Source: a virus
IMG/VR virus record: IMGVR_UViG_3300032046_005540
Span: 64,001-128,000 of that record
Reading direction: 5' to 3' (one strand)
Length of the DNA stretch: 64,000 bases
A model generated the notes under the pieces. It was given only the letters and a program-made list of their open reading frames with translations. It made no database searches and was not told the DNA's origin. Each line of letters opens with the position of its first letter. The stretch's first letter is position 1. A program made the position numbers and the translations under genes. Positions 12,356-37,481 of this stretch are shown here, one piece after another.

Positions 12356-12766
12356 TTATTCATCTTTTTTTCTTAACTCTTCTAAACGTTGATCAATTAA
12401 TTCAATTATTTCATTTGCAAATTTTTCATCCTGAAATAGAAGATTTAACAGCGTCACAAATTTTTTAACTAAATCTTCATCACAAACAGTCACAATCGTG
12501 CTTTTATCTCCGACTATTCTTTCAAAATGTATCCAAGGTTTATTATGTTCTTTTGCTAATTTTTTAGTTTCATATGCTCTTGTTATTATAGAATTTTTTC
12601 TTCTTGTCTTTCCTTCTACAACAGCATATTTATATAAAATATCTCCTAAACGTTTTCTTCCACTATCGTCCCTGTTGTTTTGCCCCGAAAGCGGATTTCG
12701 ATGGACGTTAAACCACTGACCGATTTGTTCTTCAAAAGACTTAAATATTGTATTTCGTTTTGCCAT
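12356..12766 (-). CDS. Holliday junction resolvase-like PD-(D/E)xK nuclease
   Basis: SFEEQI...RNPLSG...GDI...VVEGK pattern. Confidence 0.65.
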   Translation of the reverse strand: MAKRNTIFKSFEEQIGQWFNVHRNPLSGQNNRDDSGRKRLGDILYKYAVVEGKTRRKNSIITRAYETKKLAKEHNKPWIHFERIVGDKSTIVTVCDEDLVKKFVTLLNLLFQDEKFANEIIELIDQRLEELRKKDE

Positions 12767-16687: not shown

Positions 16688-17314
16688 TTATTCCTCATAT
16701 TTTAATTCCATTCCAAAAGTATCAACCTTTGTTACTAACTCTTTTCTTGACGCAAAATAATCAGCCATATACACTATCAATTCTGGAATAGTATATTTTT
16801 CTATAGGTTTCTTAGCTATATCTGGTCCCCAAAAAGCCATATGGTATTTTATTAAATTAAAAATTTCTTGTTGCCAAAAGGTTACCTCTTCATTAGGAAA
16901 AGTTTCTTTATAATGTTGTTCAACTAATATTGGGTGATCTTCATAAGTCTTATAATCACTTTGCCCTTTACCTCCTTTGAAACCATCATGTAAAATACAA
17001 GAAGCAATTATATTATCAGACATTTCAATATTATTAGCTCCTAAACCTTCCTCTCTATATTTAAAAGCTTGCATAAATCTAATTGCAAACCATACAACAC
17101 GTTTTGTATGTATTAATAATCCACTTCTTACATTAGAACAAACTGGATGATATTTACCAGTAGTAGATGTAGGTCGAGTCCAAAAATGTTCTGGAAATAT
17201 TCCTAATACTTTCTTAACCCACTCTCTTTTTTCTTCGTTTTTAATTAATGCTAAAGTTTTTTCAAAAACTTTTTCTTTACTTTGTTTTGCTAGTTTCATT
17301 TTACTCCTATACAA
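16688..17314 (-). CDS. HD-domain phosphohydrolase
   Basis: KYH...GLLIHTKRV...ILHD...H...YH...ADY. Confidence 0.8.
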   Translation of the reverse strand: MYRSKMKLAKQSKEKVFEKTLALIKNEEKREWVKKVLGIFPEHFWTRPTSTTGKYHPVCSNVRSGLLIHTKRVVWFAIRFMQAFKYREEGLGANNIEMSDNIIASCILHDGFKGGKGQSDYKTYEDHPILVEQHYKETFPNEEVTFWQQEIFNLIKYHMAFWGPDIAKKPIEKYTIPELIVYMADYFASRKELVTKVDTFGMELKYEE

Positions 17315-20796: not shown

Positions 20797-21064
20797 TTAC
20801 TTTCTCCTGTATTTTTTCTAAAGATTTTCTAAGCTCAACATCTTTCTCGGCAGTCACTTTAATATCCTGATTTGTCAAAGCCTTTGCGGCACGGAATAAA
20901 GCTGCACTTACACTTTTAAGCTTTTCTTTGTCTTCTTCCTTATCTAAATCCAATTCAATTTCAGCTTCTAAAATTGTCGGGGGAAAATCCCAAAAACTAT
21001 AACTATAAGAACTTGAAATTTTACGTCCAAATCCTTTTGTAATTTTGATAATCTTTAGAGCCAT
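20789..21064 (-). CDS. Hypothetical protein
   Basis: ORF fits operon spacing. Confidence 0.55.
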   Translation of the reverse strand: MALKIIKITKGFGRKISSSYSYSFWDFPPTILEAEIELDLDKEEDKEKLKSVSAALFRAAKALTNQDIKVTAEKDVELRKSLEKIQEKVNA

Positions 21065-21193
21065 CGTTTCTCCTTTAATTCCACACTAAAAGTAGTAAAA
21101 GAAGCCATAAATACTTTGGATTTTGAAACATTATCGAAAGAAATATAACACCTGCAATAAGAACAATATTTGAAAAAGCCCTTGGCCAATTCA

Positions 21194-22249
21194 TTAAAAA
21201 TCCTCACTTTCTTTTTGTAACAAAACATTTCTTTTTTCCCAAACCTGATTATAAACCAAGTCATACATAACAGGATCTTTCAAAAGTTTTATAAAAGCTT
21301 CTTTACCATTTACAGAAACCTTCTCATCAGAAACAAGAGAATATTTATTTCCAATCCTCTTTATTACTCCCTTACCTAAACCTTCATCAAAAAGTAATTG
21401 TTCAAAATCAACTCCTTTTTCATAAAGAACTGGAAATTTACCACTTCTTCTTGGAGGAGCTAATTTATTTTTAACTACACATACATCAATACTATGACCT
21501 AGAAGGATTTCTCCTTTTTTAACATCTGATCCTGAAACTTTTTTAACTTTATATCTTTGTGCAGCATAAAACTTCAATATTTTACCCCCAGGAGTTCTTT
21601 CAGGATCTCCCCACATAACTCCTACAGCGTCTCTAACTTGATTTATAAAAATTAAACAAGTTTCAGTTTTACTTAATTCTGGAGCAATTTTCCTTAACCC
21701 TTTACCCATTATTCTTGCAAGTAATGCCATTTGTTGATCTTCCATAGCTCCTTCAATTTCTGCTTTCGGAACTAATCCTACAACGGAATCAATAACACAA
21801 TAAGCGTATAGACCACTACTAATAAAATCTAAAAGCATATCAAAAGCAGTTTCCGCACATAAATCCGCACCTGGTGCTTCAATCATATCAGTATCTATAT
21901 CATAAATTTCCATCCACTCTTTAGGTGTTCCAAATTCCAAATCAAAATAAGCCGAAGGTTTGTTATACTTTTTTTGAGCGTGGCCCATTGCTTGAAGAAC
22001 TAAAAGACTCTTACCACTACTTTCAGGACCAAAGATTTCAATCATATTTCCTTGAGGAAAACCTCCGATACCAGATGCAACATCTACAGTAATAATTCCT
22101 GTTGAATAAACACCTTTAGATTTTTCTTCACTTAAATCTCTCAAAGAACTTTTGTATTTACCCTCAATGTATTTTTTAAGTTCCTCCCTATCTGTAGGAA
22201 CTTCTTTATCTTTTTTCATTAAAATACTCTCCTTTTTTATGCTTCCCAC
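21194..22249 (-). CDS. recA: RecA recombinase
   Basis: IEIFGPESSGKS, IDSV, IFINQVR, TPGGKILKFYA, VVKNKLAPP. Confidence 0.95.
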   Translation of the reverse strand: MGSIKKESILMKKDKEVPTDREELKKYIEGKYKSSLRDLSEEKSKGVYSTGIITVDVASGIGGFPQGNMIEIFGPESSGKSLLVLQAMGHAQKKYNKPSAYFDLEFGTPKEWMEIYDIDTDMIEAPGADLCAETAFDMLLDFISSGLYAYCVIDSVVGLVPKAEIEGAMEDQQMALLARIMGKGLRKIAPELSKTETCLIFINQVRDAVGVMWGDPERTPGGKILKFYAAQRYKVKKVSGSDVKKGEILLGHSIDVCVVKNKLAPPRRSGKFPVLYEKGVDFEQLLFDEGLGKGVIKRIGNKYSLVSDEKVSVNGKEAFIKLLKDPVMYDLVYNQVWEKRNVLLQKESEDF

Positions 22250-22430
22250 CTCTTACATCGCTCAGCAACTACTTCTCCTACTTTCAATCGATAGATCAAC
22301 TATATTTTTATCATTACCAAAAAATTCAGACATTTGAATAGTAGGATCATAAGCAGTCAACCACCCAATTCTATATCTTACAATACAACCTGCAGACTTT
22401 TTACAATTTTCACAATTCTTATTCATTTCT

Positions 22431-23225
22431 TCACTCCTTATTATATTCCTCCATAGTTTTTATATTTTTCAAAGCAAGTTGTAAGATTTCATCTGAAACT
22501 TGGACATTAAAATAATCTTCTGGTCTTTCTGGAACAACAAACTTTGCAGGTAATGTCTCTTTAATATCAATACCTTTAATAGCACATTTAAATGCTGTTG
22601 AAGAATCCACACTTCTAATAAATCCAAAAAGTTTTAAAAATTCAATCTCATGTGGATGACCTCCAATACCTAAACAATGAAAACTTTTACCAGAAGCAAG
22701 TAAATTGAAATGTTGATTAACATAACTTATAACCGTAGGTCTTAAAAGACTTTGAGGTAATTGCCAAAATTCAAAAGTTTTACCTATGGCTCCATACGAA
22801 AAACCTATAGTATCAATCTCTTTAACTTCTAACAATTTCGAAAAACATTCCATATATTCTCTTTCAGTCTTTCCTTGAGGAACTGCCATTAAACTTTTTG
22901 GACGATAACTCTTATTTTCCAAATCATTCAAAGCATCAACAACTCGTTTAATAGTAATTTCTCCATCCAAATAACAATCAGGTAAAACCATTTCAGAAGC
23001 ATGAACTAACTCAACTGCTTTAATAACTTCATCAAGAGGAGCAGCATTTCCATATTCAAATACACCATTATCCATAATGATAAAATCTCCTTTTAAACTT
23101 CTTTCAAGGTATGTTTCCTGATATTTTTTATTTTTTAAAACCTCTTGAGAAATTAACAAATGCATAGAAGAATTTTGATTACAAACTTCTATATAATCAG
23201 CTGGAACAATATGACAAATTTTCAT
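22431..23225 (-). CDS. TGT/DpdA-like guanine transglycosylase (TIM barrel)
   Basis: MDNGVFE, VLPD, AVPQG, FHCLG, RSVDSS occur in the order of the TGT substrate-binding and catalytic Asp motifs. Confidence 0.7.
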   Translation of the reverse strand: MKICHIVPADYIEVCNQNSSMHLLISQEVLKNKKYQETYLERSLKGDFIIMDNGVFEYGNAAPLDEVIKAVELVHASEMVLPDCYLDGEITIKRVVDALNDLENKSYRPKSLMAVPQGKTEREYMECFSKLLEVKEIDTIGFSYGAIGKTFEFWQLPQSLLRPTVISYVNQHFNLLASGKSFHCLGIGGHPHEIEFLKLFGFIRSVDSSTAFKCAIKGIDIKETLPAKFVVPERPEDYFNVQVSDEILQLALKNIKTMEEYNKE

Positions 23226-23239
23226 TTTATTTCTTTCTT

Positions 23240-23773
23240 TTATATCATTTTAGATAATTCACAAACTTTTTCAACTCTTCGTTGAATTTCTCCTGTTATT
23301 ATATAATACATATGATGATTATTAAAAGAATAAATTTCATTCAATAATTTTTTAATTTCTCTATCAACATCTTTTTGAAATTGAAAATCTTCATCTCTAA
23401 CACTATCTTTTTCCAAAGAAAACTCTATTGGAATATAAAACACGGCACCTGCAAATTGGTCTCTTTCTATTTGACATAATCTTTTCATAAGATTTATAAC
23501 GGGTTCAGGTAATTTATTACTTATAGCATAAGCAGTTTGTCTTATAATACTATCTACAGAAATAAAACTAGGTTTTCCACATACTTTTTGTAAATATCTT
23601 TGAACTGTTTCTATTTGACTAACAATATCACTTGTTTTATTTATTTGAAACCCTTCTTGCTTTGCTTCACGATGAATTCCATCTATAATTTCACAATAAG
23701 GAAATAACTTTTGAATTTCCTTTGCTAAAGTAGTTTTTCCTGTTCCGTGAGCACCTACTAATAAGATTTTCAT
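23240..23773 (-). CDS. P-loop nucleotide monophosphate kinase (AAA_28/NadR-like)
   Basis: GAHGTGKTT; FYIPIEF...DSVRD..FQ. Confidence 0.8.
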   Translation of the reverse strand: MKILLVGAHGTGKTTLAKEIQKLFPYCEIIDGIHREAKQEGFQINKTSDIVSQIETVQRYLQKVCGKPSFISVDSIIRQTAYAISNKLPEPVINLMKRLCQIERDQFAGAVFYIPIEFSLEKDSVRDEDFQFQKDVDREIKKLLNEIYSFNNHHMYYIITGEIQRRVEKVCELSKMI

Positions 23774-23791
23774 AATCTCTTCTCCTCCAAA

Positions 23792-24052
23792 TTAAGTATA
23801 ATAATGATCAAGGAAAGTATCCTCCTGAGGTTTTACATGTGAGACTTTCAAACAATATAAATGATACAGAGCATAACCAATCACATCGGGTATACGAAAT
23901 AAAAAACATAAAGCAAGTACAACAAAAGCAAAACCAAAAACTGGGTCACCCCATTGAAGATGAAACAAATACACAGGAATCACAAAAATTCCAATACAAA
24001 TAAATCCTCCAACAAATCCAAAAAACATTGTTAAAAAAGAATGGTCTTTCAT
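23792..24052 (-). CDS. Small membrane protein
   Basis: Likely start MKDHSF; two hydrophobic helices. Confidence 0.55.
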   Translation of the reverse strand: MKDHSFLTMFFGFVGGFICIGIFVIPVYLFHLQWGDPVFGFAFVVLALCFLFRIPDVIGYALYHLYCLKVSHVKPQEDTFLDHYYT

Positions 24053-24053
24053 A

Positions 24054-24473
24054 TTATTTATCTCCAAACAATATTTTGAACTCTCTTTGAAAAGATTGTA
24101 ATGAATCTGAAACATGAACTGCATTTTTAGGTAGTTCCGTTCCAAACATTTGTCTAATAGTTCCAAATTTAGCTTTTTTAGGATCTGTATTTCCAACAAG
24201 TTCTCTTAAATGTAAAATAGTTTCTTCAAAATTCTTTTCTGGATGAGATACTATTAAAGTAACTACAGGATCTGAAGTTACAAACTTAAGGTTTCTTACA
24301 AAAAAATCTTTGCCTCTATGTTCATAATAAAGGTCCCTAGCCTGAGTTAATGTCAAAGTCCTAAATTTCATGTGATCAATCTTATAACCATTGTCCTCAA
24401 GAATGGTAATTATTTTTCCTACATTACCTGCTTGCACAGCATCAGGTTTTATTATTACCAAACAAAGGCCCAT
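24054..24473 (-). CDS. ndk: Nucleoside diphosphate kinase
   Basis: IIKPDAV, GTIR, NAVHVSDS. Confidence 0.93.
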   Translation of the reverse strand: MGLCLVIIKPDAVQAGNVGKIITILEDNGYKIDHMKFRTLTLTQARDLYYEHRGKDFFVRNLKFVTSDPVVTLIVSHPEKNFEETILHLRELVGNTDPKKAKFGTIRQMFGTELPKNAVHVSDSLQSFQREFKILFGDK

Positions 24474-24633
24474 TACAACTCCTTTTTTAAGTTACAAGTT
24501 CTTTATTTAATGTGTAAAGTCTTTTAAACGCTTCTTCTCGCAACTTTTCACAATGTAATCTTTGAGAATCCAATTCATCAATTTCATTGTATATTTTTTC
24601 TTTTCCAAGTTCAATTTCTTCTTTTCTATTCAT

Positions 24634-24966
24634 TTAATCCATCACCTTTTTTGCTTCCTCTGCAAAATGATCATATTCTATAACATTATCAATTGCATAA
24701 TCTCCAGTAGGAATTGTTATAGGATTGTGAGTGTTATGTTTTAAAGTAACTGGTTTTTCTACATGCAAAAACAAATTATCTTTTTCATCACAATACAAAT
24801 CAGACAACTCTTTCTCTACAATTTGATGGCAATGACCAGTTACTTCTCCTTCTGCCAAAATCCTATGATTTAAAGGTTTTAGGTTTGCAGGAAAAGTTTC
24901 AATTTTCCTAACAATTACATCTCCTTGTTGGAAAAATTCTCCAACATTAACTTTACTTCTCTTCAT
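24634..24966 (-). CDS. Conserved small protein (QGDV/EGEVTGH family, usual partner of DUF6745-like proteins)
   Basis: QQGDV...LAEGEVTGHCH...LKH..H..I.IPTG.Y...EYD. Confidence 0.7.
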   Translation of the reverse strand: MKRSKVNVGEFFQQGDVIVRKIETFPANLKPLNHRILAEGEVTGHCHQIVEKELSDLYCDEKDNLFLHVEKPVTLKHNTHNPITIPTGDYAIDNVIEYDHFAEEAKKVMD

Positions 24967-24982
24967 CTTACTTACCTCCTCT

Positions 24983-26137
24983 TTAAGTTAAAATTAAAGG
25001 TTTATTTTTTGTTTTATTTCTAAATTCTAATGCTTGTTCTACAGTAGTAATTTCTGGAGAAACTCCTTCCAAATGCCAAACCTTCTCAGAAGGATTAAAC
25101 ATTCTAAGATAGGGTCTAACTCTTTCATCTCCTAAATCAAGATTGTATAAACAATATCCTTCTGAACCTTTATCATCTAAAACTTTAGCTTTAAGTTCAA
25201 AAAGAATTTTTTCAATTCCTATCTTTCTAACTATTTCTCTTCTAACTTCTGTATTTTGTTCTTTAAGAAGAATATGGGAGTCTAATTTATCAGAGGGAGT
25301 TAAAACTATTTCTTTAGAAACTCTAACACCATTCAAAACATAAACTTCAAATTTAGGTTCTCCGGCATAAAGAATTGCTGGTCTATCTTCTGCATGAAGA
25401 ATTCCGTTCTTCATATAAATTTCTCTTGGGTGATCACAAATAATAGTAATATTTTCTAAAGGATAGAAAAATCCCCATTGAGTAGTTTTCATATATAAAC
25501 CAAACAATGGAGAAAATTCAATTCCAAGTTCTTTATTCATAAAATCATAAAATGCAAAATAACCTACAAAAAAATGACCATCAATATATGGGTAAACAAA
25601 ATCTTTAACCTGACTCCTAACCTGATTCCCAACCTGACTCCTAACCTGACTCCAAACCTGATTCTCAACCTGATTCCTAACCTGATTCTCAACCTGATTC
25701 CTAACCTGACTCCAAACCTGACTCCCAACCTGATTCTCAACCTGACTCCTAACCTGACTCCAAACCTGATTCCTAACCTGATTCTCAACCTGATTCTCAA
25801 CCTGATTCCTAACCTGATTCTCAACCTGACTCCAAACCTGATTCTCAACCTGATTCTCAACCTGATTCTCAACCTGATTCCCAACCTGACTCCTAACCTG
25901 ACTCCAAACCTGACTCCAAACCTGATAAAATAAAAGAACAGCTAACCAAGTAGATAAAGGATTATCCATATAAACTATAGGAGCAGGTTTATAACCAAGT
26001 ATCTTTTCTCTTATAAAATTTGGAGTTATTAAATCCTTTTCTACGGGGTCAGTAGAAAGTCCTATTTTTACCCATTTTTCTACATATTCAGGAAATTTAG
26101 ATATTTGTTCTTTAGTTAAAGAATTTATTTGTTTCAT
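24983..26137 (-). CDS. DUF6745-like protein with QVxx tetrapeptide repeat
   Basis: 26 QV[WREG][SN] repeats; C-terminal LHAEDRPAILY...NTEVRR. Confidence 0.7.
   Translation of the reverse strand: MKQINSLTKEQISKFPEYVEKWVKIGLSTDPVEKDLITPNFIREKILGYKPAPIVYMDNPLSTWLAVLLFYQVWSQVWSQVRSQVGNQVENQVENQVENQVWSQVENQVRNQVENQVENQVRNQVWSQVRSQVENQVGSQVWSQVRNQVENQVRNQVENQVWSQVRSQVGNQVRSQVKDFVYPYIDGHFFVGYFAFYDFMNKELGIEFSPLFGLYMKTTQWGFFYPLENITIICDHPREIYMKNGILHAEDRPAILYAGEPKFEVYVLNGVRVSKEIVLTPSDKLDSHILLKEQNTEVRREIVRKIGIEKILFELKAKVLDDKGSEGYCLYNLDLGDERVRPYLRMFNPSEKVWHLEGVSPEITTVEQALEFRNKTKNKPLILT
25607..25924. repeat. 12-bp tandem repeat, about 26.5 units
   Basis: Minus-strand unit CAGGTT-(TGG/AGG/GAG/GGG)-(AGT/AAT). 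Confidence 0.95.
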
Positions 26138-28614: not shown

Positions 28615-31134
28615 CTATTCTTTAATTTCTTCCAATTTCCTCCACTTTTCTCCTACTTTAATATCAACTTTCATAGGAACTCTAATAGATCCTTCTATTG
28701 TATTATAACCTCTAACAACTTCTTCTTTTGCTATTTGAACAATAATATTCCTTTCTTCTTTAGGAAATTCATAAATTAAAGAGTCATGCACAGTAAGAAC
28801 TAACCTTATTTTACTATTTAATTGTTGTAATCTTTTATCAACTCGAATAGCAGTTATAGCAGTAATATCTGCAGCCATTGATTGTATTGGACTGTTGACT
28901 GCTTGTCTCATTGCTTCACTTTTATCTTTTTCATCATGCCTCTCCATATTTTTACTCCAAGGAATTTGAGCCGCAGGAAGTCTCCTTATACGTCCAAAAG
29001 CATTTACTACTTCTCCGTACTCCTGAGCTACTTTCTTAATATTAACTATCCATTCTTTTGCTTTTGGATAACGATCAAAAAATATTGTCCTAATGCGTTC
29101 CGCATCTTCCTCAGACATTCCATGTTCTGCAGCCAAACTTTTTGCACCTCTTCCATACATAATCCCAAATGTTGAATTTTTTGCTTGTTGTCTTTCGTCT
29201 TTTGTTATTTCTTCAATTTTTTTATTAAAACAAACAGAAGCCGTTTGTTTATGAACATCTATTCCAGAATTGATTGCTTCTATCATTTTCTTATCGTTCG
29301 AATAATGACCCCAACATTTAAATTCTGCTTGGGCGAAGTCAATTTCACATAATTCATATCCTAGTTCTGCAATAAAACATTCTTTAATAACACTATCTCG
29401 AGGAATGTTTTGTAGGTTAGGATTACTACTACTAAGACGACCAGTTACGGTTCCATCTACATGGTAATCAGTATGAATTCTTCCGTTCTCATCAACTCTT
29501 TCAAGCATTCCAATAACATAAGTGCTCAAAAGTTTACTCAAGTCTCTATGTTCTTTTAATTTAACTAATTCAGGAGATTTATCTATTAAACTATCTAAAA
29601 CTTCTGCGTCTGTAGAAAAACTCTTCTTACCACTTTTTCCTCCCTTAGTCATTTTTATAGGTTCAAATCCAAGAACATTAAATAACAATATTCTCAAATG
29701 ATCAGAAGACCTTAAATTAAAAGAAGTAGGTTTTGTATATTTTTGTATATATTCTTCTTTAGGTAATCTCTTAGATTTTAAACTATCAAATCTTTCTTCA
29801 ATCTTTTTTGCAGACCTATTATATAATGCTTTCTCAACTTTTTTAACCGCATCAGTTCCTCGAAATTCTTCTTCAATTTTTTTCAATCGTTTTTCATATT
29901 CAACTCTTAATTCTTTAAGACGGTCTATATCTAATTTAACTCCATAATATTCTGTTTCTAATAAAACTTTTTGAAAAGGTATAGTAATTTTATTAAATAA
30001 TCTCATTAAACCTTGTTTTTTAAGTTCAAGTTTAAATTTTTGGTAACATCTAAAAGTAGCATCTGCGTCGGCCGCAGAATACTTCCAAAGAACTTCATTT
30101 GATATAACTGCATAGGAAGTATTTTTATTAAGTAGATATTTTGACAACTCTTCATCATATTTCCCCATATCAGGAAAATAACGTAAAACCATTGTATCTA
30201 ATCCATGACCCTCTCTTCCAACATTTTCATCTAACAAATGATGAGCCAACATTGTATCAAATGTAAAATTATTTAATTTAATTTCGTTAGATTTTAAAAA
30301 TTGAATATCAAATGATAAGTTCTGACCTATTTTACCAATATTACTTTCTAAAACTTTTTTCAATTGATCTATTATCCATTTTTTTTCTTCAGGTTTCCAA
30401 AATTCTTGACAATGTTGTTGCAATATAGGAAGAACAACTCCAGTTCTTTCTTTCCAAGAAAAACTACAACATAAAATTTTATCTTTCCAAAAATCTAATC
30501 CAGAAGTTTCAGTATCAAAAGCAAAAATATCAACACTATTTAATTTATCAAAAAACTTTTGAGCTTTTTCTATTGTATCTATAATAACATATTTTGGAGG
30601 ATCAGGCTCTACAGGATTCTTTAACCATTCTACAACATTCTTTAAATGATCAACCATTACTCCTTGTAATCCTAAACGTCTACAAATATATGCTGGATGA
30701 AAAGTAGGCATTATCCAACAATTATATTTTTCACTCCAATGTTTTGTTCCTGCCCAAGAAGTACTACCTTCAAGACCTTGAATAGCTTGTAAAGCAATAC
30801 CTCCCAAAGGAACTATAATTTTAGGTTTTACTTTTTGAATTTCTTCTTCAAGGTATGGAAAACAAGCTTTTATTTCTTCAGGCTCTGGATCTCTATTTTC
30901 AGGAGGACGACATCTAACCGTATTGCTGATGTATAAATATTTTCTATCTAATTTTGCTTCCTTTAAAATAATATCAAGGCGTTTACCAGCAACTCCTACA
31001 AAAGGTTCTTTTTGTAAGTCCTCTTCTTTCCCTGGTGCCTCACCCACTAACATAATATCCACAGGGATAGGACCCACACCTTGAATACAAGGATTTTTAC
31101 AAGTCTTAAACAATTTACATTTATTACAACTCAA
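28615..31134 (-). CDS. polA: Family A DNA polymerase with N-terminal family-4 uracil-DNA glycosylase domain and 3'-5' exonuclease
   Basis: UDG: GEAPG, PFVG.AG, CRPPENRDP, TFHPA. Exonuclease: FDTETSG. Polymerase: TGRLSS.NPNLQNIP, DFAQAE, AK..TFG..YG, NSPIQ, TVHDS. Confidence 0.95.
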   Translation of the reverse strand: MSCNKCKLFKTCKNPCIQGVGPIPVDIMLVGEAPGKEEDLQKEPFVGVAGKRLDIILKEAKLDRKYLYISNTVRCRPPENRDPEPEEIKACFPYLEEEIQKVKPKIIVPLGGIALQAIQGLEGSTSWAGTKHWSEKYNCWIMPTFHPAYICRRLGLQGVMVDHLKNVVEWLKNPVEPDPPKYVIIDTIEKAQKFFDKLNSVDIFAFDTETSGLDFWKDKILCCSFSWKERTGVVLPILQQHCQEFWKPEEKKWIIDQLKKVLESNIGKIGQNLSFDIQFLKSNEIKLNNFTFDTMLAHHLLDENVGREGHGLDTMVLRYFPDMGKYDEELSKYLLNKNTSYAVISNEVLWKYSAADADATFRCYQKFKLELKKQGLMRLFNKITIPFQKVLLETEYYGVKLDIDRLKELRVEYEKRLKKIEEEFRGTDAVKKVEKALYNRSAKKIEERFDSLKSKRLPKEEYIQKYTKPTSFNLRSSDHLRILLFNVLGFEPIKMTKGGKSGKKSFSTDAEVLDSLIDKSPELVKLKEHRDLSKLLSTYVIGMLERVDENGRIHTDYHVDGTVTGRLSSSNPNLQNIPRDSVIKECFIAELGYELCEIDFAQAEFKCWGHYSNDKKMIEAINSGIDVHKQTASVCFNKKIEEITKDERQQAKNSTFGIMYGRGAKSLAAEHGMSEEDAERIRTIFFDRYPKAKEWIVNIKKVAQEYGEVVNAFGRIRRLPAAQIPWSKNMERHDEKDKSEAMRQAVNSPIQSMAADITAITAIRVDKRLQQLNSKIRLVLTVHDSLIYEFPKEERNIIVQIAKEEVVRGYNTIEGSIRVPMKVDIKVGEKWRKLEEIKE

Positions 31135-31757: not shown

Positions 31758-32180
31758 TTATTTACCACTACTTCCAAAACCTTTTTCTCCTCTATCACTT
31801 TCAGAAAGTTCTTCAACTTGTTTAAATACTACTTGTGGAATAGGTTCAACAAAAGCTTGCCCAACTTTATCTCCAATTTTAACACAATAAGGTTCATTAC
31901 TATGATTATACACAATAGTGCCTAATACTCCTCTGTATCCGCAATCTATAGTTCCATTATGCATTTGTATACCTTTTATTCCTTGACTACTTCTTGCTCT
32001 CAAAAATAAACCATAACCAAGAGGAGGCTCTACAACAATTCCAATACTAACTTCTCTCCAACTATGGGCAGGAATAATTACTTCCTCCACAGAATATAAA
32101 TCAAAGCAGCTATCAGATTCATAAGTCTTTGTAGGTAATTTTGCATTTGGATGAATTAATTTACATTTAACAACTATCAT
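31758..32180 (-). CDS. dut: Trimeric dUTPase
   Basis: FDL, RSS, GTIDCGYRG, RGEKGFGSSG. Confidence 0.95.
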   Translation of the reverse strand: MIVVKCKLIHPNAKLPTKTYESDSCFDLYSVEEVIIPAHSWREVSIGIVVEPPLGYGLFLRARSSQGIKGIQMHNGTIDCGYRGVLGTIVYNHSNEPYCVKIGDKVGQAFVEPIPQVVFKQVEELSESDRGEKGFGSSGK

Positions 32181-32542
32181 CTTCCCTCCATCAATAAATT
32201 TACTATTCTAACTATTTCTTCCCAATTGTTTTCAAATCTAACTGCTCGATCATCAATATAAACATCGGCAAATACTTTGCCTTGAGAACCATCATCAACT
32301 TCATCAAAAGGTATATTATTTCTTTCTAAAAAATCTTTTATTATTCTTACTTGAGTAAGTCTTTCTGCTAAATTTGGATGTAATTTCGTATTGGCTCTGC
32401 AAGAAGTTATAATAATATAACATCCTATTTCTTTCAATAGTCTAATACAACGAATAGCATTTTCTTTCAAAGGACCTATATCTGGATATTCATTTTCAAC
32501 TATTGTTCCATCAAAATCTATAGCAACTACAAAAGGTCTCAT
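32177..32542 (-). CDS. HAD-superfamily phosphatase
   Basis: AIDFDGTI, TSCR, K..ADVYIDD. Confidence 0.85.
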   Translation of the reverse strand: MRPFVVAIDFDGTIVENEYPDIGPLKENAIRCIRLLKEIGCYIIITSCRANTKLHPNLAERLTQVRIIKDFLERNNIPFDEVDDGSQGKVFADVYIDDRAVRFENNWEEIVRIVNLLMEGR

Positions 32543-33108
32543 TGGACTCCTTTCACCTTATAGCAAGCTTCTTGAATATCTCGAAATTCTTTTGTAAATC
32601 TATCCATTAAAATAATAGCAAAAGATTTTACATCATATCCTAAATCAGGAAGATCTTCTAAACCAATAGCTAATACAGGACAATTTTTTCCAACTTTAAT
32701 ATTTAAACCTACATGGATAAGACCTGAAACTGGAGACGAAGTAGCAATAGAAACAGAAAGTTTTTTACAATCAACAAAAATATCATCTCCTTCACGACGA
32801 AGTTTATAAGATTCTGGTATTGTTAAACTTCTTAAAAAATCAATAGTTTGTGTAATAAAAAGTCTTTGCCAAACAACCATTTCTCTTAAAGAAATATCAA
32901 AAATCTCAATTATGAAATGAAGCATACTCTCACTACTAATAAAATCATTCTTTAATCTATCCTCACAATCTACCAAATGTTCTTTAACTTCCGCAGGGCC
33001 TATAAAACTTACAATACTATTTCCTTTTACTCCATGTGCGTAGGCAAAGTGAGAGTGTAATTGAGAACCATCATATTTTATTTCTCCATTTAAAGATCTA
33101 AACTTCAT
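32539..33108 (-). CDS. DUF366-like protein (lipoate-ligase/class II synthetase-like fold)
   Basis: YDGSQL...F.GP...LVD.ED...MLHFIIE...QRL...R.GDDI...KLSVSIAT...IH.G.N, recognised from memory of the family. Confidence 0.75.
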   Translation of the reverse strand: MKFRSLNGEIKYDGSQLHSHFAYAHGVKGNSIVSFIGPAEVKEHLVDCEDRLKNDFISSESMLHFIIEIFDISLREMVVWQRLFITQTIDFLRSLTIPESYKLRREGDDIFVDCKKLSVSIATSSPVSGLIHVGLNIKVGKNCPVLAIGLEDLPDLGYDVKSFAIILMDRFTKEFRDIQEACYKVKGVQ

Positions 33109-33446: not shown

Positions 33447-34133
33447 TTAAGATATTAAATATTCCAAAGGATCTATTAAACCATTTGCCCTAAATGCTTC
33501 TAATCTCTCAACACAAGCAGAACATTTACCACAAGCTGGTCTTAAACCTTTATAACAAGAATGAGTTAGTTTATAAGGAACACAAAGTTTTATTCCTAAA
33601 GCAACTATTTCTTTTTTAGTCATATCAATAAATGGAGTTTTTATTTCAACTTGAACTCCATGGGTAGAACCTAAACTCAAAGTCTTTTCCAAGGCATCAT
33701 AAAAATCTCTTCTGCAATCTCTATAAACCTCAAAATCTTCTTTCACTGGGGTCATAAAAATTGTTATAGGATTCAAATCTAAAGATTCTCCATATGCTGC
33801 TGCAAGAGTAGCTAACATAGTATTTCTAAAAGGAACTACTGTTTGAATTTGATCTTTCATTTCTTCTGGAACTTTCCAATCCTTATCAGTTAATGCGCTA
33901 TGGCCTATTTGAGCTAAATCAAAATTTAAAATCTTTAAGTCTCCCACTCTTTTTTCTCCATATTTATTTTGATACCTTGCCCAAATAAGCGTTGCTGAAG
34001 TTATTTCAGCAACAGAATGTTTTTGTCCATAGTTAATACTTAAAGGATAAAGCGTCCATCCTTCTTTTAACATATGAGCAAATAATGTAGTAGAATCTAA
34101 ACCACCACTTAAAAGAAATATTCCTTCCTTCAT
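33447..34133 (-). CDS. queC: 7-cyano-7-deazaguanine synthase
   Basis: SGGLDS, YGQKH, VPFRN, YRDCR, SCY...CGKCSAC.ER. Confidence 0.95.
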   Translation of the reverse strand: MKEGIFLLSGGLDSTTLFAHMLKEGWTLYPLSINYGQKHSVAEITSATLIWARYQNKYGEKRVGDLKILNFDLAQIGHSALTDKDWKVPEEMKDQIQTVVPFRNTMLATLAAAYGESLDLNPITIFMTPVKEDFEVYRDCRRDFYDALEKTLSLGSTHGVQVEIKTPFIDMTKKEIVALGIKLCVPYKLTHSCYKGLRPACGKCSACVERLEAFRANGLIDPLEYLIS

Positions 34134-34135
34134 TT

Positions 34136-34603
34136 TTAGTTCTCCTTCTCATATGGAAATTTAATCCAAACATCTTTATCTTCACTTGCAGCAAAATAAT
34201 CAGGATCAAATTTTGAATTCTTTTTATAAAATAATACAGAAGTCCGAATGTTTTTGAACCCTTTTTTTCTATATAAATCCACAACGGCTTTCATCGTTTC
34301 TCCTGAATCTACTAATTCATCTACAATCAAAATTCTGCTTTCTTTTATAACATCAGGGAAACACAAATAAGACGGAGATCCTATTTTTAATTTAGATTGT
34401 TTATTTTCTTTAGTATAAGAACTTGTAACAACAATATCTAAAGGAATATTCCAACTATGAGACATAAAAAGTGCTGGAATAATACCCCCGCGAGAAATTC
34501 CCACAACAAGATCAAACTTTTCCTGAGCTTTGTTAGATATAATATCTATAAGGCGGTCAACTAACTGAAAGTAATATTCCCAAGAAATTTCTTCTTTTTT
34601 CAC
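34136..34603 (-). CDS. Purine-type phosphoribosyltransferase
   Basis: ISRGG, PRPP loop ILIVDELVDSGET, WIKFPYE. Confidence 0.9.
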   Translation of the reverse strand: MKKEEISWEYYFQLVDRLIDIISNKAQEKFDLVVGISRGGIIPALFMSHSWNIPLDIVVTSSYTKENKQSKLKIGSPSYLCFPDVIKESRILIVDELVDSGETMKAVVDLYRKKGFKNIRTSVLFYKKNSKFDPDYFAASEDKDVWIKFPYEKEN

Positions 34604-35274
34604 TAAACACCTCTTTTATCTTTATCCCAAATTATTTTATGCATTTGAAGACTATACCGAACGTCTAATTGATCCTTCAAAATCCATTCTGCTAATGTTT
34701 TTGGATCCATCTTTCCCCAAACAGGAGAAAATACATATTGTTCTTGTTTTATTGTTTGAGAATTATATTTTAATATAACCATTTTCGCATAGTCATAATC
34801 TTCCCTGTCCCCAATAATAAACTTTATTTCATCACACGGACGAAGATAATAAAAATTTGTCCAACACATTCCTTTTTCCATTCCAGAAAAAGGACATTTT
34901 ACATCCATACAAACAACACTAATATAAGGAATATATTTATAAATAGAAAGACTACCATTAGTTTCAAGAATAATATCTTTATCTAATTCTTTATTTATAA
35001 ACTTAACAAGATCAAAACAATTTGGAGACTGGAGAGGCTCCCCACCGGATAATAAAACTCTTTTACAATAACGATATTTACTTATTTCTGATGCTATTTT
35101 ATTGAACGTCATTATCTTTCCTTCTTTATAAGCCCATTTGCTGTCACAAAAAGAACAACGTAGATTACAGCCTGTTAACCTAACAATAACAACAGGCAAT
35201 CCTTTAGTTTTACCTTCTCCAGAAAATGTATAATATATTTCATTAACTTTTATCCTTTTTGTTCCTTCTTTCAT
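34603..35274 (-). CDS. queE: 7-carboxy-7-deazaguanine synthase (radical SAM)
   Basis: GEG...VRLTGCNLRCSFCDS, SGGEP, LETNG, SLQMHK.IW. Confidence 0.93.
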   Translation of the reverse strand: MKEGTKRIKVNEIYYTFSGEGKTKGLPVVIVRLTGCNLRCSFCDSKWAYKEGKIMTFNKIASEISKYRYCKRVLLSGGEPLQSPNCFDLVKFINKELDKDIILETNGSLSIYKYIPYISVVCMDVKCPFSGMEKGMCWTNFYYLRPCDEIKFIIGDREDYDYAKMVILKYNSQTIKQEQYVFSPVWGKMDPKTLAEWILKDQLDVRYSLQMHKIIWDKDKRGV

Positions 35275-35906
35275 TTAATTATTCCCTCCTCCAACCAAGT
35301 TTTAATAGGATCAAACGTTTTTCTATGAAATGGAGTAATACCATATTTTCTAATTGCTTCAATATGTTTCTTAGTTCCATATCCAACATTTGTTTTCCAA
35401 CCATACTTTTCATATTCAGGAAACTGATCAACTAAACTTTTTATATACCTATCTCTTAATACCTTAGCAATAACAGAAGCAGCCATAATAGAAGGTTCTT
35501 TTTCATCTCCTTTTATTATCCATATTTGATGTTCAAAAGGAATATTTAAAAGTTGTTTTTGATTATATAATTTACCGTCTATCAAAACAGTATCAGAAAT
35601 TGTTTTACCTGCTGTTTGTAGTTTTGGAAGAACTTCAAAAATTGCTCTTTGCATAGCTAACCTTGTTACATTAAGAATATTTTTTTCATCTATTTCTTGT
35701 ATGTTTGCAGAACCAGTTGCAAAAACAAGACCAAAATCTTTAAACTTTTGAAAAAGGTCTTCTCGTTGTTTCAAAGTTAATTTTTTAGAATCATTTAATC
35801 CATCAAAAGAAGGGTAAGATTCCCACAAAACAGCACCAGCAACTACGGGCCCTGCCAAGCACCCTCTTCCAACTTCATCACACCCAATTACAGAATTTAA
35901 TTTCAC
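35271..35906 (-). CDS. rnhB: Ribonuclease HII
   Basis: GCDEVGRGCLAGPVV, DSKKL, IDG, KGD, AASVIAKV.RD, GYGT..H; likely GTG start at 35906. Confidence 0.93.
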   Translation of the reverse strand: MKLNSVIGCDEVGRGCLAGPVVAGAVLWESYPSFDGLNDSKKLTLKQREDLFQKFKDFGLVFATGSANIQEIDEKNILNVTRLAMQRAIFEVLPKLQTAGKTISDTVLIDGKLYNQKQLLNIPFEHQIWIIKGDEKEPSIMAASVIAKVLRDRYIKSLVDQFPEYEKYGWKTNVGYGTKKHIEAIRKYGITPFHRKTFDPIKTWLEEGIIK

Positions 35907-35907
35907 T

Positions 35908-36231
35908 TTACTTCCTCCTAAATTTTTTAAATTCTGAAGCTCGATATCTTCCAATCTCTTTATCAAGAGCAATTTCTAATGTTTTTTCTTTCGAAATAAC
36001 TTCAACCGGAGAAGTATCTATACTATATCCATCCCACGTTGTAAGAATTTCTTTTTCTTTACACCTATCACAACACATCGCAAATTCTAATTGCAATGGT
36101 TTTTTTCCTTCCTTTCTAAACTTTTCCTCTTCTTCTTCAGTTAAAGGGCTTAAACATACTTGATCCATTTCACAAAACTTTTTACGTTTCCTACAAAACT
36201 CACAAGTTATTAAAACATCATTATAACTCAT
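35908..36231 (-). CDS. Hypothetical Zn-binding protein
   Basis: CEFC...CDRC. Confidence 0.55.
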   Translation of the reverse strand: MSYNDVLITCEFCRKRKKFCEMDQVCLSPLTEEEEEKFRKEGKKPLQLEFAMCCDRCKEKEILTTWDGYSIDTSPVEVISKEKTLEIALDKEIGRYRASEFKKFRRK

Positions 36232-36232
36232 T

Positions 36233-37033
36233 TTAGAAATCCCAATTCTTTTTAAAATATGCTACTGCATTATGTTCATGGATGCTTTCATATGACATTA
36301 CTTTAATACTATATCCCTCAATGCCAGATATTTTATTTAAAGCAATAGCAACATCTCTTGCTACATCCTCTACAAATTTTGGATTTTTAAATGCCTTTTC
36401 CGTAACCCATTTTTCATCTGGGCGTTTTAAAACAGGATAAATATCGCAACTTCCCATTGACTCAATCAAAGAAACAACATCTTCAATCCATAAAGGTTTA
36501 CCTAAAAACTTCAATCTTGCAGTTACTATTGCTCTCTGATTATGAGCACCATATTTACTTATTGCTTTACTACAAGGGCATAAAGTAGTTATTGGAACTG
36601 AAACTTCAAGGTAAAAATCATATTTATTAGATGTTAATCGACCTACAAAAGCACAAGAATACCCTTGGATCCCATTTACTCTTTTTACTGGAGATTCTTT
36701 AGGAATAAAATATTTAAACCTAAAAACAGCATAAGCGTCCTTTGTTTTAAGTTTTCTTTTTAACTCTTCTAAAAATACTCTTAACTTTCTTGAATTTATT
36801 GTTTTATAACGATATTGCATTAAAACCTCAGAAAACCTTGACATATTAATCCCTCTAATCTCTTTCTCAAGGTCTCCATACATTGAAACAATCGCTTGAG
36901 TTGTTTGATATTGTCTCTTTTGTTTTTTAGCAACTAATATAGGAAAACTAACATCTTCAATACCTACTCTATAAAGAGGCACTCCTCGTTTATCTTTTAA
37001 CGCTTGAATATCCGGTAATTGTTCTTCAACCAT
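36233..37033 (-). CDS. folE2: GTP cyclohydrolase IB
   Basis: LPDIQ, VGI, GINMSRF, TLCPCSK, GAHNQR, LKRPDE, NPKFVED, ESIH.H.A. Confidence 0.95.
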   Translation of the reverse strand: MVEEQLPDIQALKDKRGVPLYRVGIEDVSFPILVAKKQKRQYQTTQAIVSMYGDLEKEIRGINMSRFSEVLMQYRYKTINSRKLRVFLEELKRKLKTKDAYAVFRFKYFIPKESPVKRVNGIQGYSCAFVGRLTSNKYDFYLEVSVPITTLCPCSKAISKYGAHNQRAIVTARLKFLGKPLWIEDVVSLIESMGSCDIYPVLKRPDEKWVTEKAFKNPKFVEDVARDVAIALNKISGIEGYSIKVMSYESIHEHNAVAYFKKNWDF

Positions 37034-37052
37034 AGCTTCTCCTTCCAATTTT

Positions 37053-37481
37053 TTATTCTCCATATATAGCACTCGATTTAGGACCTTCAAACACTTCAAC
37101 ACTTATAAGTTTAACAGGATAAAACTCAGATTGAAAATTGTAAAACAAAAATTGTGCCATATGTTCTGCCGTAGGATTTCCTTGCATAGGATAAATTTGT
37201 TGCCCTTGATCTTTTGAAATAACATTCTGACAATGTAAAATTTCTATAAGAGGATCAGCAAAATTCAATATAAGTCCATGATCCCAATGTTGATCAATCC
37301 ATCCTTGAATTACTTTTTTTACAACAGAAAAATCAACTACCATTCCATCTTTATTAAGATCTTCACTCTCAAATGTAAAAATAGCACGCCAAGAATGGCC
37401 ATGGATACGCCCGCAAGGTCCTTCATAATTTAATAACCTGTGAGCCGCATCCCATTTAACTTCCTTAGCAATCTTAAACAT
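37053..37481 (-). CDS. queD: 6-carboxytetrahydropterin synthase
   Basis: DAAHRL, CGRIHGHSW, GMVVDF, WDH, NPTAE. Confidence 0.93.
   Translation of the reverse strand: MFKIAKEVKWDAAHRLLNYEGPCGRIHGHSWRAIFTFESEDLNKDGMVVDFSVVKKVIQGWIDQHWDHGLILNFADPLIEILHCQNVISKDQGQQIYPMQGNPTAEHMAQFLFYNFQSEFYPVKLISVEVFEGPKSSAIYGE

Follow-up and report, generated by a model that had tools for sequence, protein, structure and literature searches.

Organization of the gene array

The array occupies positions 22431-24473 on the minus strand of the window (the whole stretch of 64,000 nucleotides analysed here), which belongs to the 168-kb, 90%-complete genome of an uncultivated phage. It consists of an NDK gene, an ORF of 86 aa with two TM segments, a P-loop kinase gene and a gene for a 264-aa TGT-fold protein, all co-stranded and separated by intergenic gaps of 4–18 bp. 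The block is best explained as the part of a 7-deazaguanine DNA-hypermodification system which installs the base. An earlier reading of the DNA letters (hereafter the sequence-only reading) had proposed TGT-fold, kinase and ndk genes in this region, and all three ORFs were recovered exactly where they had been placed.

The first gene of the array (24054..24473) is preceded by an AAGGAG-type ribosome-binding site and codes for an NDK of 139 aa. Its product matched PF00334 with an E-value of 1.5e-39 over 134 of 135 positions and carries the active-site His in the context NAVHVSDS. The 86-aa ORF (23792..24051) starts with an ATG located 2 bases past the NDK stop codon, and its translation displays two hydrophobic helices; a longer version starting with TTG gave no family matches. 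It is followed by the P-loop nucleoside/nucleotide kinase P0002 (177 aa, 23240..23773) and by P0001 (264 aa, 22431..23225), predicted to be a DpdA3-type minimal TGT-fold guanine/7-deazaguanine transglycosylase. One more ORF on the same strand (54 aa, 22262..22426), taken from the ORF list and without family match, separates the latter from RecA. A promoter and terminator scan of positions 21000-25200 revealed nothing above chance, and megablast of the array region against phage records gave no match.

P0001 is a DpdA3-type transglycosylase

Direct searches with P0001 in Pfam, NCBIfam and, as a single sequence, in the PDB did not return any match; profiles and fold alone were informative. The AlphaFold model (AF2) of P0001 reached a pLDDT of 96.8, and its top Foldseek matches were all TGT or ArcTGT enzymes (best E-value 4.6e-8). 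Alignment of the model with TGT using VIA-align gave a Z-score of 17.5 over 232 of 264 residues with an rmsd of 3.3 Å, so that the predicted structure is a TGT-type (beta/alpha)8 barrel. With a profile built on 70 sequences of the P0001 family, the best PDB match was the bacterial DpdA (bDpdA) structure 7ui4 (E-value 5e-4), where Q117 of P0001 aligned with His181 and D207 with the nucleophile Asp256. Residues D52, D83, G186 and D207 are invariant in the 70-sequence alignment, and Q117 and G118 nearly so. A further invariant residue, R162, is specific to DpdA3 and finds no equivalent in the alignment with bDpdA. From these alignments, D52 is predicted to act as general acid/base, D83 and Q117 in base recognition, and D207 as nucleophile.

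The sequence-only reading had described P0001 as a DpdA-like enzyme, which can now be assigned to a subfamily. In tblastn, P0001 retrieved the locus of Cellulophaga phage phiST (E-value 3e-9) and the 'DNA guanine transglycosylase' of Flavobacterium phage vB_FspM_immuto (hereafter immuto; 2e-7), and gp056 of Campylobacter phage CP220 matched the family profile with an E-value of 2e-32. The relation to DpdA1 is more distant: hhalign of the two profiles gave 86% and an E-value of only 5e-6 over 161 columns. An exhaustive search extended the family to 2529 cluster representatives at E<1e-3. These results show that P0001 is a TGT-fold transglycosylase of the DpdA3 subfamily with the Asp/Asp/Asp and Gln active site of guanine-exchanging enzymes.

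DpdA3 proteins are short, with a median length of 261 aa versus 436 aa for bDpdA. The features which define the latter, namely the CxCx2Cx22H Zn site with Ins8 and the DpdB partner, are lacking in P0001: no CxCxxC Zn motif was found in P0001, in 151 DpdA3 representatives or in 81 locus ORFs, and no ParB-like (DpdB) gene among the annotated neighbours of P0001. An argument for a non-DNA substrate based on the absent Zn/Ins8 module and on the acidic pI (DpdA3 median 5.9) was considered and discarded: in phage 9g, DpdA1 acts on DNA although it, too, is devoid of CxCxxC and its pI is about 5.6.

Family and fold of the kinase P0002

P0002 matched PF13521 (AAA_28) with an E-value of 9.6e-9, above the cut-off, and phrog_2107, annotated as 'thymidylate kinase', with 3.6e-17. 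Neither Thymidylate_kin nor dNK of Pfam was matched by P0002 itself; one member of its family matched dNK at 7.6e-10. The protein displays a Walker A motif (GAHGTGKTT), a DR-type motif and a lid of the DDGVR type, and the residues G12, K13, T14, T15, R35, Q53, Y113, D123, R126 and R166 are invariant in the family alignment. The AF2 model (pLDDT 90.6) was matched in Foldseek by the RNK domain of NadR (TMq 0.74), TMPK, dAK/dNK and YorR, so that both nucleoside kinases and NMP kinases are among its structural neighbours. Walker A, DR-type motif, arginine lid and fold together place P0002 in this kinase class. The more precise label of NMP kinase, used in the sequence-only reading, is plausible given the matches of the model to NadR RNK, thymidylate kinase and deoxynucleoside kinase; the acceptor may be a nucleotide or a nucleoside.

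Kinases of the P0002 family were also found in 89 Streptomyces phages with no adjoining DpdA3; in Streptomyces phages they occur beside a methyltransferase. The 'methyltransferase' next to the kinase of Streptomyces phage Mildred21 was considered as a possible relative of DpdA3 and rejected, as it is not DpdA3-like.

The pairing of kinase and DpdA3 across phages

Using a 10-sequence alignment, 80 related DpdA3 loci from 37 lineages were retrieved, and +/-10 kb of each were screened for a kinase of the P0002 family. It was found 13 times, always on the same strand as DpdA3 and in 12 cases at most 1.5 kb away, an adjacency which is above chance. Altogether, P-loop kinases of at least three subfamilies (AAA_28/dNK-like, TMPK/YorR-like and PNK-like) adjoin DpdA3 in 17 of the 80 viral loci and 12 of the 37 lineages, and the kinase-bearing loci are scattered over the DpdA3 tree. 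The TMPK/YorR-like kinase (GxDKxGKS) is located immediately 5' of DpdA3 in loci L007, L009, L017 and L021. In a relative with 78% identity the overlap of kinase and DpdA3 is retained, and in the phage studied here the order of the two genes is reversed with the adjacency retained. A homologue search for longer forms yielded no fusions; the exhaustive search delivered a single case, P0085, a kinase-DpdA3 fusion of 477 aa encoded at locus L169 in the order FolE, MazG, fusion, PolA. A modelled complex of DpdA3 and kinase obtained a score of 0.09, which weighs neither for nor against such an assembly.

The same neighbourhood was found in phages with named DpdA3 proteins. In CP220, gp057 and the HD-P-loop protein gp055 flank DpdA3 (gp056); in phiST the P-loop kinase-like gene CGPG_00066 lies beside DpdA3; in immuto such a gene adjoins it as well. 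All three phages reported to be 100% replaced (3/3) thus carry a P-loop kinase-like gene beside DpdA3. The Bacillus BSTP phages (BSTP12) also display an adjoining P-loop kinase. As a control, no kinase was detected near DpdA1 in 83 DpdA1 loci, a set representing one narrow clade of at least 60% identity. The adjacency of TGT-fold and kinase genes noticed in the first reading was thereby confirmed far beyond this window, and the pairing of kinase and DpdA3 is evolutionarily conserved. It seems to be undescribed so far: within the deazaguanine literature, no paper was found on a nucleotide-level route or on a kinase partner. The proposed clustering with NDK held only in part. In this phage, NDK is one 86-aa ORF away from the kinase, but NDK was found beside DpdA3 in 0 of the 80 related loci, making this phage unique among the loci examined.

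Replication and nucleotide-metabolism genes

RecA, PolA, dUTPase, primase and DnaB are all encoded near the array. PolA (28615..31134, minus strand) is a family A polymerase (PF00476) with N-terminal UDG-superfamily (PF03167) and 3'-5' exonuclease (PF01612) domains; a PolA with UDG-like domain occurs in 16 related loci. DpdA3 lies directly 5' of PolA in 20 of 24 PolA-bearing loci, the PolA start being located at a median of 5 bp past DpdA3. The phage polymerase had already been pointed out in the sequence-only reading, together with HD and HAD hydrolases as possible dGTP-depleting enzymes, and the corresponding genes do exist, also on the minus strand. The HD-domain protein (16688..17314; PF01966, 1.4e-5) is encoded between SbcD-like and SbcC-like genes; it gave no informative PDB match and has no relatives in the 80 DpdA3 loci. 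The HAD-like phosphatase candidate (121 aa, 32177..32542) was recognised in the translation with a regular expression by its DFDGT motif I (DxDGT); it has no Pfam match and is not conserved near DpdA3 in the 80 loci. The trimeric dUTPase (31758..32180, minus strand; PF00692, 3.8e-20) keeps all five canonical motifs, and thus neither a dGTPase nor another dGTP-depleting enzyme is evident from the genes of this phage. Neither MazG nor RNR was detected in the 168 kb. Across the related loci, NTP pyrophosphatase genes (MazG, DCD/dUTPase-like) are, with PolA, frequent immediate neighbours of DpdA3: in 36 of 80 loci, a gene of the MazG, DCD or NTP-PPase type, whose product would be a candidate for dGTP removal, is at most 3 kb away. 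For DUF3310, no described function was found in the literature.

Such a gene content raises the question whether kinase and NDK are linked to DpdA3 at all, or are ordinary nucleotide-metabolism genes which share an early replication module with it. Nucleotide-metabolism and replication genes of phages cluster generally, as seen here; NDK is not conserved with DpdA3, and the kinase family also occurs beside a methyltransferase in Streptomyces phages. Mere co-residence is nevertheless unlikely. It leaves unaccounted for the tight spacing in 12 of 13 occurrences, the adjacency that survived a reversal of gene order, the independent recruitment of three kinase subfamilies, and the existence of a fusion protein.

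Synthesis of the modified base and the PRTase

The genes for preQ0 synthesis form a block on the minus strand (33447..37481), identified with Pfam and NCBIfam: QueD (37053-37481), FolE2 (36233-37102), QueE (34603-35274) and QueC (33447-34133), interspersed with RNase HII (35271-35972). The phage thus makes its own preQ0 via FolE2, QueD, QueE and QueC. Genes of this pathway are frequent in the 80 related loci (QueD in 58, FolE in 55, QueE in 53 and QueC in 41). Further upstream on the minus strand, an ArcS core domain (DUF5591; 41770-42561; PF17884, 1.3e-8; NF040592 ArcS, 2.3e-14) and a weak radical-SAM protein (40891-41628; PF04055, 0.002) are encoded, which suggests that the final base may be archaeosine-like.

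A PRTase of the Gpt/6-oxopurine type (34136..34603, minus strand; PF00156, 4.5e-22) is inserted between queE and queC, with ends overlapping both genes. It also matched NCBIfam XPRT (2e-16), PDB entry 1vdm (7e-18) and E. coli XGPRT. Of the 80 DpdA3 loci, 25 carry this PRTase, as do 12 of the 26 loci with long flanks. Homologues were found in 14 of 50,697 phage records, and 9 of these 14 are DpdA3 phages. Since FolE bears a fused PRTase-like domain in 29 of 84 DpdA1 loci, the Gpt-like PRTase looks like an enzyme of guanine recycling. The kinase does not simply track the PRTase, because the Campylobacter phages possess the kinase with no PRTase homologue detected, and in locus L169 the PRTase is absent over 10 kb.

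Alternatively, the PRTase could be the enzyme which makes the modified nucleotide, by joining the 7-deazaguanine base to PRPP; the kinase and NDK would phosphorylate this ribonucleotide, a host RNR would reduce it, and DpdA3 would only mop up residual G in DNA. The translational coupling of the gene between queE and queC and the enrichment of its homologues in DpdA3 phages speak for such a role, as does the precedent of ToyH and TubE, the deazapurine PRTases of toyocamycin and tubercidin biosynthesis in Streptomyces nucleoside antibiotic pathways. It is nonetheless very improbable. The universal gene is DpdA3 and not the PRTase, which is missing from most DpdA3 loci and was not seen in the Campylobacter phages; DpdA1 phages, where G is partially modified on DNA, carry this domain joined to FolE; and no RNR was found in this 90%-complete genome.

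Pre- or post-replicative replacement of G

The DpdA3 subfamily was defined by Cui, Hutinet et al. (NAR 2023, PMC10516641), who concluded that insertion is post-replicative. In that study, 100% of G was replaced in the DpdA3 phages CP220, phiST and immuto, DpdA3 failed to modify plasmids in the E. coli assay where DpdA1 and DpdA2 succeed, and ADG nucleoside was found within the cytoplasm of infected cells. CGPG_00066 of phiST was stated to have no homologues in other deazaguanine phages, and kinases and PRTase are mentioned nowhere in the paper (PMC10516641). A modified-dGTP route had been proposed in 2019 for Campylobacter phages by Hutinet et al., who left possible 'undetected 2'-deoxyribosyltransferases' (PMC6884629); it was dropped in 2023 upon the discovery of DpdA3 (PMC10516641).

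The mechanism by which G is totally replaced with 7-deazaguanine in phages is unsettled, and the recurrent pairing of enzyme and kinase, together with the fusion, reopens the question whether full replacement occurs in the nucleotide pool or on finished DNA. To our knowledge, action of DpdA3 on DNA has never been shown. All the characterised members of the TGT superfamily that we are aware of act on tRNA or DNA, none on a free nucleotide. As far as we know, the complete base replacements of known route (T4 hmC, SPO1 hmU, XP12 m5C, S-2L Z) are all made in the nucleotide pool.

We tentatively favour, at a probability slightly short of even, that DpdA3 exchanges the base in the nucleotide pool, followed by the partner kinase, NDK and PolA, and hence that G replacement is pre-replicative, contrary to the published model. 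The substrate of DpdA3 would be a deoxyguanosine nucleotide in free form (probably dGMP, delivered by a MazG/DCD-type pyrophosphatase where present) or else the nucleoside, and its guanine would be exchanged for the 7-deazaguanine base. The partner kinase would phosphorylate the modified product, which the host guanylate kinase may refuse, and NDK (a phage gene here, a host gene elsewhere) would yield the triphosphate. Phage PolA would then incorporate it, and complete G replacement would follow the logic of T4 gp56/gp42/gp1. The Gpt-like PRTase would convert the released guanine back to GMP, from which GTP would be made to feed FolE2. A dNMP-level pathway of T4 type predicts a conserved kinase link of DpdA3. 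The sequence-only reading had arrived at a comparable pre-replicative route; it is strengthened by the DpdA3 identity of P0001 and by the conservation of the kinase link in divergent phages, and weakened by the lack of NDK in the 80 loci. Several other facts count against it. The active-site residues predicted for DpdA3 are those of TGT enzymes acting on tRNA or DNA; the kinase is found beside DpdA3 in about a third of the lineages only; this genome has no MazG, RNR or evident dGTPase; and the P0002 family occurs in Streptomyces phages without adjacent DpdA3.

The published model, in which DpdA3 flips out G in the phage DNA after replication, perhaps at the fork beside PolA, is a serious contender, although we hold it to be distinctly less than an even bet. 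Here, kinase, NDK and PRTase would salvage guanine via GMP and GDP to GTP, feeding FolE2 and drawing the exchange onward; in another version of this model, the P-loop protein would be an ATP-using helper like DpdB, the ATPase partner that bDpdA requires (PMC10164549). All steps of the guanine-to-GTP loop (PRTase, kinase, NDK and FolE2) are encoded in the window, and such recycling fits it equally well as an exchange in the pool. DpdA3 is also remotely homologous to the DNA-acting DpdA1 and bDpdA with shared catalytic residues, the PRTase-like-FolE fusion occurs in DpdA1 loci where exchange is known on DNA, and DpdA3 mostly lies directly 5' of PolA; exchange on DNA is favoured in PMC10516641. 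The kinase, however, adjoins or is fused with DpdA3 and not with PRTase or FolE, and it is found without PRTase in L169 and the Campylobacter phages. The presence of at least three phosphotransferase subfamilies beside DpdA3 speaks for a kinase reaction and against a specific partner in DNA handling, and DpdB is ParB-like with no kinase fold. DpdA3 alone left E. coli plasmids unmodified, as mentioned above. Finally, we know of no post-replicative base exchange that reaches 100%.

If exchange in the pool proves true, DpdA3 would be the first TGT-fold enzyme whose substrate is deoxyguanosine or one of its nucleotides in free form, a new reaction type in the TGT superfamily, and the first case of pre-replicative purine replacement by base exchange. 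CP220-, phiST- and immuto-type phages and the present one would then all be pre-replicative, the failed reconstitutions of DpdA3 in E. coli would be explained, and enzymatic access to 7-substituted 7-deaza-dGTPs would be gained. If it proves false, the kinases still need explaining, e.g. by guanine-to-GTP recycling or as ATP-dependent helpers.

Comparison with known systems

As in the DpdA3 phages phiST (CGPG_00065), CP220 (gp056) and immuto, the transglycosylase is a minimal TGT barrel of about 260 aa with detectable homology, sharing the motifs DNG...E, PD, PQG, HLLG and DS, and FolE, QueD, QueE and QueC are co-encoded next to a phage polymerase. Unlike these phages, the present one adds an ArcS core, a weak radical-SAM protein, FolE2 and its own NDK. 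We count CGPG_00066 of phiST among several P-loop kinase-like partners, which differs from its description in PMC10516641.

With bDpdA (Salmonella Montevideo, 7ui4) and DpdA1 (phage 9g), DpdA3 shares the TIM-barrel TGT fold, the Asp nucleophile and the Asp general acid, and by analogy P0001 is predicted to swap guanine for a 7-deazaguanine base. bDpdA, with its 436 aa, has the insertions Ins1, 2, 3 and 8 and the CxCx2Cx22H Zn site that form a DNA-binding face, and the ParB-like ATPase DpdB. Both bDpdA and DpdA1 modify from <0.1% to about 30% of G within sequence motifs, whereas DpdA3 phages are reported to reach 100%; DpdA1 also differs by having no adjoining kinase.

The gene logic around DpdA3 resembles that of T4, where gp56 (dCTPase), gp42 (dCMP hydroxymethylase), gp1 (dNMP kinase), the host NDK and the gp43 polymerase act in sequence; S-2L likewise replaces its base with a dedicated set, MazZ/PurZ/DatZ. 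An NTP pyrophosphatase (MazG/DCD-like), a base-changing enzyme, a small kinase and a phage polymerase are found around DpdA3, and in T4-type and DpdA3 phages alike one base is completely replaced. Unlike in T4, the change of base would be a transglycosylation and not a ring substitution, the pathway is predicted here from its genes, and no dGTPase was identified in this genome. Nucleoside 2'-deoxyribosyltransferases and ToyH/TubE also attach a free purine or deazapurine to (deoxy)ribose, at the level of nucleosides or nucleotides, with unrelated folds; compared with ToyH and TubE, the phage PRTase is Gpt-like and more simply explained by guanine salvage.

Gene array and identity of the transglycosylase

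The sequence-only reading had placed a TGT-fold gene beside a P-loop kinase and close to ndk, and this same-strand array (-) is indeed present at 22431-24473. It opens with NDK (24054-24473), whose assignment is unambiguous by its match to PF00334 (1.5e-39). There follow on the same strand an 86-aa ORF (23792-24051) that encodes two hydrophobic helices and for which no relatives were found, the 177-aa P-loop kinase P0002 (23240-23773), the 264-aa DpdA3-type protein P0001 (22431-23225), a 54-aa ORF and RecA (21194-22249). From NDK to RecA the genes are 4–18 bp apart, and a consensus scan revealed no promoters or terminators above chance around the array. The window spans bases 64001-128000 of an IMG/VR virus record (168 kb, 90% complete, ~30% GC), in which almost every gene lies on the - strand.

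As a single sequence, P0001 gave no match in Pfam, NCBIfam or PDB. An exhaustive HMMER search recovered 2529 cluster representatives (E<1e-3), mostly of about 260 aa. Across a 70-member family alignment P8, D52, D83, G186 and D207 are invariant, and N53, E57, P82, T91, G118, C127, G141, R162, H183, L185 and N254 nearly so. The AlphaFold model (pLDDT 96.8) matched tRNA-guanine transglycosylases only (versus TGT: Z 17.5, 232 residues, rmsd 3.3 Å). The best solved relative of the family profile was the bacterial DNA-guanine transglycosylase DpdA, bDpdA (7ui4, E 5e-4); the profile alignment pairs D207 with the nucleophile Asp256 and Q117 with His181, residues whose roles have been described (PMC10164549). 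By tblastn, P0001 matches the phiST locus and the protein annotated as DpdA in Flavobacterium phage immuto; CP220 gp056 matches the family profile at E 2e-32, and DpdA1 is remote (E 5e-6). All this places P0001 in DpdA3, the subfamily established by Cui, Hutinet et al. (PMC10516641), to which the gene adds a new member.

The replication module that contains the array also encodes QueD, FolE2, QueE and QueC, with a gene for a Gpt-like PRTase wedged between queE and queC; similarity to NCBIfam and PDB entries marks this enzyme as a 6-oxopurine PRTase. Further members are an HAD-like 121-aa ORF, a canonical dUTPase, RNase HII, primase, DnaB, a PolA (28615-31134) bearing a UDG-like domain at its N-terminus, an HD protein and, next to a weakly matching radical-SAM protein, an ArcS core domain. 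The final base of the phage DNA is likely archaeosine-like. Neither RNR nor MazG was detectable across the whole 168-kb record. A DUF366 protein, of a mainly archaeal family, is encoded between queC and the HAD-like ORF (32539-33108; PF04017, 3.3e-54), and was found in none of the 80 DpdA3 loci used for comparison. The module also carries a NUMOD3/DUF559 homing-endonuclease-like gene (9069-10064) and an N6/N4 DNA methyltransferase (12741-13475; PF01555, 8.9e-39), and the window encodes a DUF6884 protein (47430-47954) and an MTHFR-like protein (50616-51386; PF02219, 3.8e-18).

Neighbours of DpdA3 in viral loci

ORFs within ±10 kb were clustered in 80 viral loci with DpdA3 relatives of 24–40% identity. 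QueD was found in 58, FolE in 55, QueE in 53 and QueC in 41 of them, along with DCD/dUTPase-like genes (34/80), PRTase (25/80), DpdN formyltransferase (18/80), QueF and RNR (16/80 each), and clamp and clamp-loader genes (17–21 of 80). NDK was detected in none (0/80). PolA occurs in 24 loci and starts a median of 5 bp past the end of DpdA3. Sixteen of these downstream PolA proteins have a UDG-superfamily domain at the N-terminus (L007, L009-L011, L013, L014, L016, L018, L021, L030, L031, L033, L035, L061, L066, L081), as has the PolA of the window, a fusion seen in 0/84 DpdA1 loci. About 35/80 loci encode a small DUF3310 protein no further than 1.5 kb from DpdA3 (e.g. L013:62-466, L051:2849-3124). 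Two conserved families without Pfam match recur: one (~139 aa; L017:9034-9417 and 18 other loci) directly precedes DpdA3, and the other (~290 aa; L038:15617-16579 and 17 other loci) lies in its neighbourhood.

Association of kinases with DpdA3

P0002 matches AAA_28 and phrog_2107 'thymidylate kinase'. Walker A, ExxR and DR motifs, together with a Gln and a DDGVR lid, are conserved throughout its family. The model (pLDDT 90.6) resembles the ribosylnicotinamide kinase domain of NadR, thymidylate kinases, deoxyadenosine/deoxynucleoside kinases and SPbeta YorR. The modelled fold is that of a small-molecule phosphotransferase, with a nucleoside or nucleotide as candidate acceptor. The family also occurs in 89 records of large Streptomyces phages, including Mildred21 (L172:6998-7618), where the gene overlaps one for a 256-aa 'methyltransferase' unlike DpdA3, with a MazG gene nearby; this group may be another nucleotide-level modification module.

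Of the 80 DpdA3 loci, 13 hold a P0002-family kinase, which in 12 cases lies at most 1.5 kb from DpdA3, and four more have a TMPK/YorR-like kinase (GxDKxGKS) immediately upstream. After dereplication at 60% identity, a kinase stands beside DpdA3 in 12 of 37 evaluable lineages, scattered over the DpdA3 tree. In one cluster representative, the 477-aa P0085, a YorR/AAA_28-like P-loop domain is fused to DpdA3; the gene order on the 58-kb contig that encodes it is QueC, QueD, x, QueE, FolE, MazG, [kinase-DpdA3], PolA, and in a 78%-identical relative the kinase gene still overlaps that of DpdA3. Cultured phages show the link too: in immuto the kinase lies two genes past DpdA3. CGPG_00066 of phiST, directly upstream of DpdA3, carries a GEICSGKD P-loop, and a homologue occupies this position in Chryseobacterium phage MA9V-3. 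Bacillus phage BSTP12 shows the order P-loop kinase-like, DpdA3-like, PolA. Mere co-location of kinase and DpdA3 is improbable.

In CP220, likewise cultured, the order is gp055, gp056 (DpdA3), gp057 (P0002 family). The gp055 gene (L171:7050-8081), directly upstream of DpdA3, joins an HD phosphohydrolase domain to a kinase-like one with the P-loop GLPCSGKST, and its product is a candidate for a nucleotide hydrolase and kinase in one protein.

In the 83–84 control loci, no small ORF with a Walker A motif was found up to 2 kb from DpdA1, nor any member of the P0002 family; these loci form one clade (at least 60% identity) and amount to few independent observations. DpdA1 of the 9g type acts on DNA experimentally and gives partial modification. 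The literature searched describes neither the conserved DpdA3-kinase pairing and fusion, nor the frequent NTP-pyrophosphatase and UDG-PolA neighbours, nor PRTase-FolE fusions; 'kinase' and 'phosphoribosyl' are both missing from the text of PMC10516641 (2023).

Role of the PRTase

One DpdA1 control locus (L121) has the same small PRTase as a free 154-aa protein, and 29 further ones carry a shortened PRTase-like domain at the N-terminus of FolE (GTP cyclohydrolase I). In these ~300-aa fusions (L107:9097-10008, L160:8980-9909 and 27 others in L109-L166), directly upstream of DpdA1, the PRTase-like domain has the PRPP motif and a shared WIxFPWE end. The joining of PRTase to the GTP-consuming first enzyme in DNA-exchanging phages argues for a role in returning the guanine set free towards GTP, and against one in making a modified nucleotide; a PRTase-first route is very improbable. 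Since no PRTase homologue was found in Campylobacter phages or within 10 kb of the P0085 gene (L169), the presence of the kinase is not explained simply by that of the PRTase.

Nucleotide-pool and DNA routes

The window fits two readings equally well. In the first, held at slightly under an even chance, dGMP or dGuo would be the substrate on which DpdA3 exchanges the base; kinase and NDK would then carry the product up to the triphosphate for incorporation by PolA. In the second, a real possibility clearly short of even, exchange would take place on DNA, and the joint action of PRTase, kinase and NDK would turn guanine back into GTP for use by FolE2. To our knowledge every characterised TGT-superfamily enzyme acts on polynucleotide, which favours exchange on DNA, as do the unchanged active site of DpdA3, the requirement of bDpdA for an ATPase partner, the presence of a kinase in only about one third of DpdA3 lineages and the lack of a visible dGTPase in the window's phage genome. 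The pool route is favoured by the link of the kinase, through adjacency in both gene orders and a fusion, to DpdA3 and not to PRTase or FolE, and by the recruitment of three phosphotransferase subfamilies to this one position. A non-DNA substrate had also been argued from the missing Zn/Ins8 module and acidic pI; this was rejected, both being common to DpdA1 of 9g.

The pool route is itself not a new idea, a modified-dGTP route having been proposed earlier for Campylobacter phages (PMC6884629). Also counted in its favour are the reported 100% replacement in DpdA3 phages, the failure of DpdA3 in an E. coli plasmid assay and the ADG nucleoside seen in infected cells (PMC10516641). The kinase-DpdA3 finding makes the choice between pool and DNA directly testable. 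The order MazG, kinase-DpdA3, PolA mirrors the logic of dCTPase, dCMP hydroxymethylase and dNMP kinase in T4, an analogy likewise counted for the pool route.
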